This document shows positions 37,372-37,596 of a DNA stretch of 64,000 bases, one piece after another. The stretch's first letter is position 1. Each line of letters begins with the position of its first letter. The position numbers and the translations under genes are program-made. The DNA is taken from the NCBI RefSeq assembly GCF_988243305.1, contig NZ_OZ547136.1; one strand, 5' to 3'. Under the pieces are notes generated by a model that was given only the letters and a program-made list of their open reading frames with translations, was not told the DNA's origin and searched no databases.

Positions 37372-37596
37372 AAATCGCGGAAGGGATGAAAAAAACAGCG
37401 CCTGACGGCGCTGTGTCTGGCATGCCTGCAATCCGGGAAACCGGACCAGGAAAAAACTTGCAGGCCATAACAGTATCTACGCAGTCCTTGCAATATATTG
37501 AATTTGGACGATTTTGTAGGCCTGGTAAGGCGTTTACGCCGCATCTGGCATAAATAAAGCGCACTTTATCAACAATCTACATTTGTACCCGTAACG

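Follow-up and report, generated by a model that had tools for sequence, protein, structure and literature searches.

A promoter split between the two ends of IS621: a chromosomal copy between paeA and msrA compared with its relatives

When the inverted-repeat ends of IS911 and IS2 (IS3 family) or of IS30 abut in a circle or dimer, a strong promoter, Pjunc, is transiently formed and boosts transposase expression. These elements differ from IS621 in that they encode DDE transposases, follow a copy-out-paste-in pathway, bring terminal inverted repeats to within a few bases of each other and use no guide RNA; the Pjunc of IS3- and IS30-family elements is also stated in a preprint (bioRxiv 10.64898/2026.03.19.712850). 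Nearer to IS621 are the IS110/IS1111 elements IS492, ISEc11 (where the promoter is likewise called Pjunc), ISEc21 and ISPpu10, in which the right end supplies a -35 box and the left end a -10 box, the promoter being active only in the minicircle (PMC12288879, bioRxiv 10.64898/2026.03.19.712850, PMC11187229). Such promoters were demonstrated earlier for IS492 and ISEc11 (PMC11187229). The core, donor and target sequences of these four elements differ from those of IS621 and, unlike in IS621, the guide RNA of the IS1111-type ISEc11 lies downstream of the gene. ISPpu9 is an exception: it lacks a hybrid promoter and relies on a native promoter instead (PMC12288879).

For IS621 itself, the promoter formed where the right end (RE) meets the left end (LE) was already reported by Durrant et al. 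(Nature 2024; PMC11208160). In that work, small-RNA-seq from RE-LE plasmids revealed an RNA of ~177 nt starting at a sigma-70-like promoter, small-RNA-seq of IS621 and five orthologues also started at a sigma-70-like promoter, and when RE-LE was cut to 22 bp, with the -35 box gone, recombination was lost unless the bridge RNA was provided in trans (PMC11208160). The promoter has been named Pjunc and is presumed to be the only one of the element (PMC12288879; bioRxiv 10.64898/2026.03.19.712850).

Here we analysed a stretch of 64,000 nucleotides of contig NZ_OZ547136.1 (assembly GCF_988243305.1), referred to as the window, for which an initial annotation had proposed a promoter of this kind. We are close to certain that the site is the junction (hybrid) promoter of IS621, a bridge-RNA-guided element of the IS110 family. 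The element is the same as the IS621 of Durrant et al. (PMC11208160) and Hiraizumi et al. 2024 (PMC11208158): recombinase, 177-nt bridge RNA, CT core, donor ACAGTATCT/TGTAT and REP target are common to both, and the published model, in which a -35 in the right end and a -10 in the left end are reconstituted in the circle, is the same as the one considered here. There is no substantive difference between the window copy and the published element; it is one more chromosomal copy, located between paeA and msrA. The junction promoter is real, conserved and already known, for this exact element from 2024 and for the family from 1999-2006, and because the mechanism is already published for IS621, the window adds only independent confirmation. 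The contribution of this work is a cross-genus check of conservation in which the ends of the elements were defined from their RNA guides. The mechanism can be recovered by a reader from the sequence alone, and it opens no new question. IS621 is the prototype bridge recombinase for programmable genome editing, and the split promoter would limit the production of guide RNA and recombinase to the short-lived circle.

The IS621 copy and its split promoter

The features of the locus are listed below, with positions in the window.

36179-36184, plus strand: -35 register of the integrated copy (N17), TGCGCT, REP sequence, 2/6 match
36198-36199, plus strand: left copy of the CT core, part of the REP target half-site ATCAGGCCT
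36200-37478, plus strand: IS621, an insertion sequence of the IS110 family, 1279 bp with the CT core counted once
36202-36207, plus strand: -10 box of the junction promoter, TATTAT, at bases 3-8 of the left end, overlapping the right half of the donor recognition sequence
36214-36390, plus strand: bridge RNA, 177 nt, with a 5' stem-loop followed by the target-binding and donor-binding loops
36391-37371, plus strand: IS621 recombinase gene, 326 aa (Pfam DEDD_Tnp_IS110, E = 1.7e-24; Transposase_20, E = 4.6e-26)
37395-37414, minus strand: G+C-rich hairpin in the right end, between the recombinase stop and the -35 box, then TTTTTTT, terminator-like on the minus strand
37458-37463, plus strand: right-end -35 box of the junction promoter, TTGCAG, separated from CT by 13 nt
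37477-37478, plus strand: right copy of the CT core, the crossover dinucleotide, invariant in 26/26 relatives

The whole element is 100% identical over 1279 bp to E. coli copies annotated as 'IS110-like element IS621 family transposase', and its recombinase is annotated in RefSeq as WP_000399648.1. Of 5,426 complete E. coli genomes, 2,244 contain IS621-like sequence, and the window holds one copy. When the two flanks are joined with one CT, the resulting empty site matches many E. coli genomes (602/602) in a single piece, so the boundaries and the CT core are exact. The same comparison reveals a scarless insertion at CT, with neither terminal inverted repeats nor any duplication beyond the core. 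The insertion point is a REP sequence between paeA and msrA, both of which lie on the strand opposite to the element; the left flank, GCCTGATGCG...ATCAGGCCT/AC, is REP sequence, and in an Rfam search the right flank gave a REP-like naRNA4 match. In the upstream region of paeA, immediately left of IS621, positions 36057-36114 of the minus strand match the enterobacterial sRNA STnc450 over its full length, with 77 bits against a gathering score of 37.

Positions 36214-36390 are exactly identical to what we take to be the sequence of the 177-nt IS621 bridge RNA. The fold of this segment has a z of -3.58 against shuffled controls and its 5' stem begins at base 1; an Rfam search of the left end matched no bridge-RNA family. 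The guides ATCGGGCCT and TTGCGTAG match the left and right targets of the window copy at 8/9 and 7/8 positions, respectively, while ACAGTATCA matches the right-end terminus at 8/9 and a further segment matches the start of the left end at 5/6. Among relatives, the sequence of the target loop covaries with the left flank.

The initial annotation had described the left end as TG followed by TATTAT (36202-36207), exactly as we find it, with CT at 36198-36199 and TG at 36200-36201. In the right end it had placed TTGCAG at 37448-37453, followed by 13 nt and CT. The hexamer exists and falls inside the span 37448-37468 that had been assigned to the site; however, it occupies 37458-37463, and 37448-37453 reads AGGAAA. 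The 13 nt that follow are GCCATAACAGTAT (37464-37476), with CT at 37477-37478. Reconstruction of the RE–CT–LE junction gives TTGCAGGCCATAACAGTATCTTGTATTAT, in which TTGCAG and TATTAT are separated by exactly 17 nt, as had been predicted, and the sequence spanning the junction that would be expected in reads from circles is CATAACAGTATCTTGTATTATCC. A distance of about 7 nt between promoter and RNA had also been claimed, and this agrees with a -10 box ending at 36207 and a 5' stem starting at 36214, with 6 nt between them. The term 'near-consensus' was an overstatement, the -35 box being weak (3/6, TTG only) and the -10 box matching at 5/6, for a total of 8/12. In the integrated copy, GATGCG (36177-36182) had been named as the equivalent of the -35 box; it is present and is indeed a poor -35, but it would leave a 19-nt spacer, and the N17 register is the TGCGCT listed above. 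The slips are therefore of coordinates and of wording, while the logic is sound: a split promoter that is rebuilt only in the circle and drives guide RNA and recombinase corresponds to the published IS621 model and is supported by the relatives. Directly 5' of the -35 box, positions 37448-37457 form an A-tract, AGGAAAAAAC, that is UP-element-like; A-rich stretches are found at the same place in four relatives (L012, L003, L005 and L006).

In the proposed cycle, chromosomal IS621 would hold only the -10 box in its left end (TATTAT, 2 nt inside the element) and only the -35 box in its right end (TTGCAG). The recombinase would excise the element as a double-stranded circle through crossover at both CT cores, and the abutted ends of this circle would create TTGCAG-N17-TATTAT. 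Transcription would then start ~7 nt past the -10 box, at base 1 of the bridge RNA, and may extend through the recombinase gene. Once the circle integrates at another target that contains CT, the promoter would be split anew and expression turned off, so that promoter activity would be confined to the transposition intermediate.

Integrated and junction contexts compared

A consensus promoter scan, which required 4/6 or better for either hexamer and at least 9/12 in total, detected no promoter-like site in the integrated region 35900-37700. The junction site, at 8/12, is also below this threshold, and because the junction too would fail the consensus scan, we turned to a position weight matrix (PWM), an approximate one built from hexamer frequencies. 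With 9.34 bits, the site at the junction ranks first there, while the N17 register of the integrated copy scores 3.77 bits, that is, 5.6 bits lower; the highest-scoring -35 that precedes TATTAT in the integrated copy, whatever the spacer, reaches 4.57 bits. Sites of at least 9.34 bits by this PWM number 39 in the 128 kb of strand of the window (~0.3 per kb per strand), so the chance of such a site straddling the junction is ~1%. Only 5 sites in the window have the form TTGnnn-N17 with a -10 of at least 5/6. The rarity of the junction site by PWM is suggestive, not decisive.

That the integrated copy is essentially silent is, like the size of its up-regulation after excision, something that we infer. 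In the literature we found no study of IS621 in which the promoter activity of the integrated context is set side by side with that of the junction; for its relative ISPpu10, both have been measured (PMC12288879).

Excision requires recombinase and bridge RNA before any circle exists, and it may be argued that the integrated copy is also usefully transcribed, from a weak internal or flank promoter or by read-through, the junction providing a modest boost and not an on/off switch. Two weak candidates are shared by both contexts, TTGTAT-N17-GAAAAT (36199 and 36222; 6.63 bits) and TTGCAA-N16-GAACAT (36372 and 36394; 4.75 bits); however, no site in the region 35900-37700 passed the consensus scan. 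Read-through in the sense direction is unlikely because both neighbouring genes, paeA and msrA, lie on the opposite strand. Native promoters are found in ISPpu9 and ISPpu10 (PMC12288879; bioRxiv 10.64898/2026.03.19.712850), but for IS621 the hybrid promoter is regarded as the sole one (PMC12288879). Taking both sides into consideration, we judge a mere boost at the junction to be unlikely, and prefer a promoter whose activity would be confined to the circle.

The split promoter is conserved at a fixed geometry

A scan of species-representative genomes yielded 78 loci encoding relatives of the recombinase, with 33-84% protein identity. The ends of these relatives were set by guide matches and without recourse to promoter motifs: the left boundary was taken as the repeat shared by the left flank and the target-binding loop, and the right boundary as the repeat shared by the right-end terminus and the donor-binding loop. 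The comparison set consisted of 26 distinct junctions, other genera included, with 45-84% protein identity for the relatives and 45-100% when the window copy is counted; L011, whose end was mis-set and whose contig begins at the core, was left out of the counts. In a protein search of a plasmid collection, nearly all relatives were below 40% identity, with ends too distant to align.

TTG is found exactly 13 nt before CT in 24 of the 26 junctions. As -10 box, 17 junctions carry TATTAT and 5 carry TATTGT, and TATGAT, TATTTT, TATTCT and TGTTAG occur once each. Scored at the fixed register, the junctions have a mean of 10.2 bits, against 0.64 when these left ends are scored together with their chromosomal flanks, and the junction outscores the integrated flank in 19 of 20. 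The mean -35 score of the junctions is positive solely at a spacer of 17 (+5.2) and is about -2 to -7 at other offsets; for the integrated flanks it is about -2 to -7 at all offsets. Along the junction, information content is concentrated in an island at TTG and in a conserved block, of which the final T of the -10 hexamer is the last base. The only two relatives without TTG at the -35 register are L051 (TGGCGC) and L054 (TGCGTG), which may be decayed copies or lineages with a different promoter.

Conservation of the -10 box and of the spacer alone is no proof of promoter function, because both lie inside the donor sequence that is read by bridge RNA and recombinase; indeed, positions -10 to +9 relative to the core, which overlap the donor recognition sequence, are almost invariant. 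The TTG, however, is found in different contexts. It is non-coding in the right end of IS621, L012, L005 and L007, at the same register and 107 nt after the stop codon, it is within coding sequence in L003, L031 and L011, and in relatives at 50-60% identity, where TTGACN contains TGA, it overlaps the stop codon. That it is kept in non-coding, coding and stop-codon contexts argues against a purely coding or recombination-site explanation. The TTG is, moreover, outside the 7-nt left-donor guide match, and conservation ceases exactly where the -10 hexamer does. Published RNA-seq starts at the junction promoter, and deletion of the -35-bearing right end abolishes the function of the bridge RNA in cis, with rescue by the RNA in trans (PMC11208160). 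Even with an IS621 -35 box that matches at only 3/6 and a TGA within the TTGACN of the 50-60% branch, it is highly improbable that these hexamers are conserved for recombination (the -10 as part of the donor site, the TTG through a coding or stop-codon constraint or a protein contact) and resemble a promoter by accident.

Right ends of the two lineages and rearranged copies

The stem of the right-end hairpin is kept in L012, L005 and L006, while the T-run is not. This hairpin could block antisense read-in from msrA. A different arrangement is observed in L018, L025, L040, L043, L047 and other relatives at 50-60% identity, in which the -35 hexamer TTGACN encloses the TGA stop of the recombinase gene and only 17 nt of right end follow this stop; compared with these, the stop codon of IS621 and its close kin lies ~100 nt further upstream. 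In the 50-60% identity branch, which is larger and more distant than the close kin of IS621, a single 6-nt stretch thus terminates the gene and also supplies one half of a promoter that would exist only after circularisation. In IS621 and its closest relatives, a conserved hairpin and an A-tract lie just 5' of the weaker TTGCAG. It is conceivable, and we propose it only tentatively, that the IS621 lineage retuned the strength of its junction promoter and added an insulator against antisense read-in.

A contiguous RE-LE junction, as expected of a circle or a tandem, was found in none of the 5,426 complete E. coli genomes. Twelve apparently 'full' junction matches in E. coli genomes each consist of two separate pieces and derive from mini-elements or neighbouring copies. 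An exact 20-mer scan of metagenome contigs gave no genuine junction; its 9 matches all belong to one unrelated AT-rich locus without a recombinase and were attributed to chance. L064, from Snodgrassella, has TTGTATG after the right end, but no bridge RNA follows, and a tandem junction was rejected. Failure to find an assembled circle is expected, because this form is transient and finished assemblies are a poor place to look for it; circles have been documented experimentally for the family (PMC11208160, PMC12288879, PMC11187229).

Several E. coli copies depart from the usual structure. In O26 strains (L001, 2499-2520, rsmS-mscK intergenic region), the IS621 left end is preceded not by the usual REP half-site but by TAACAGTATCT, the terminal 11 nt of a right end, which do not include the -35 box; this arrangement may be the remnant of a tandem or of a junction. 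Strain NWU_1 (L002, 2007-2153) carries a miniature derivative of roughly 150 bp, in which ~75 nt from the start of the left end are joined to the final ~75 nt of the right end; it keeps both promoter halves and has neither a complete bridge RNA nor the recombinase gene. In strain WEC (L082, 301-414, fdhE-yiiF), a complete IS621 is preceded by a second copy of its first 114 left-end nt, which is consistent with a self-insertion at GCCT/TT within a left end followed by homologous recombination. Finally, strain GN05064 (L081) harbours a 96%-identical variant of IS621 with a frameshifted recombinase gene and a -35 box reading TTGCTG, and its target-binding loop is changed so as to match its own, different left flank.
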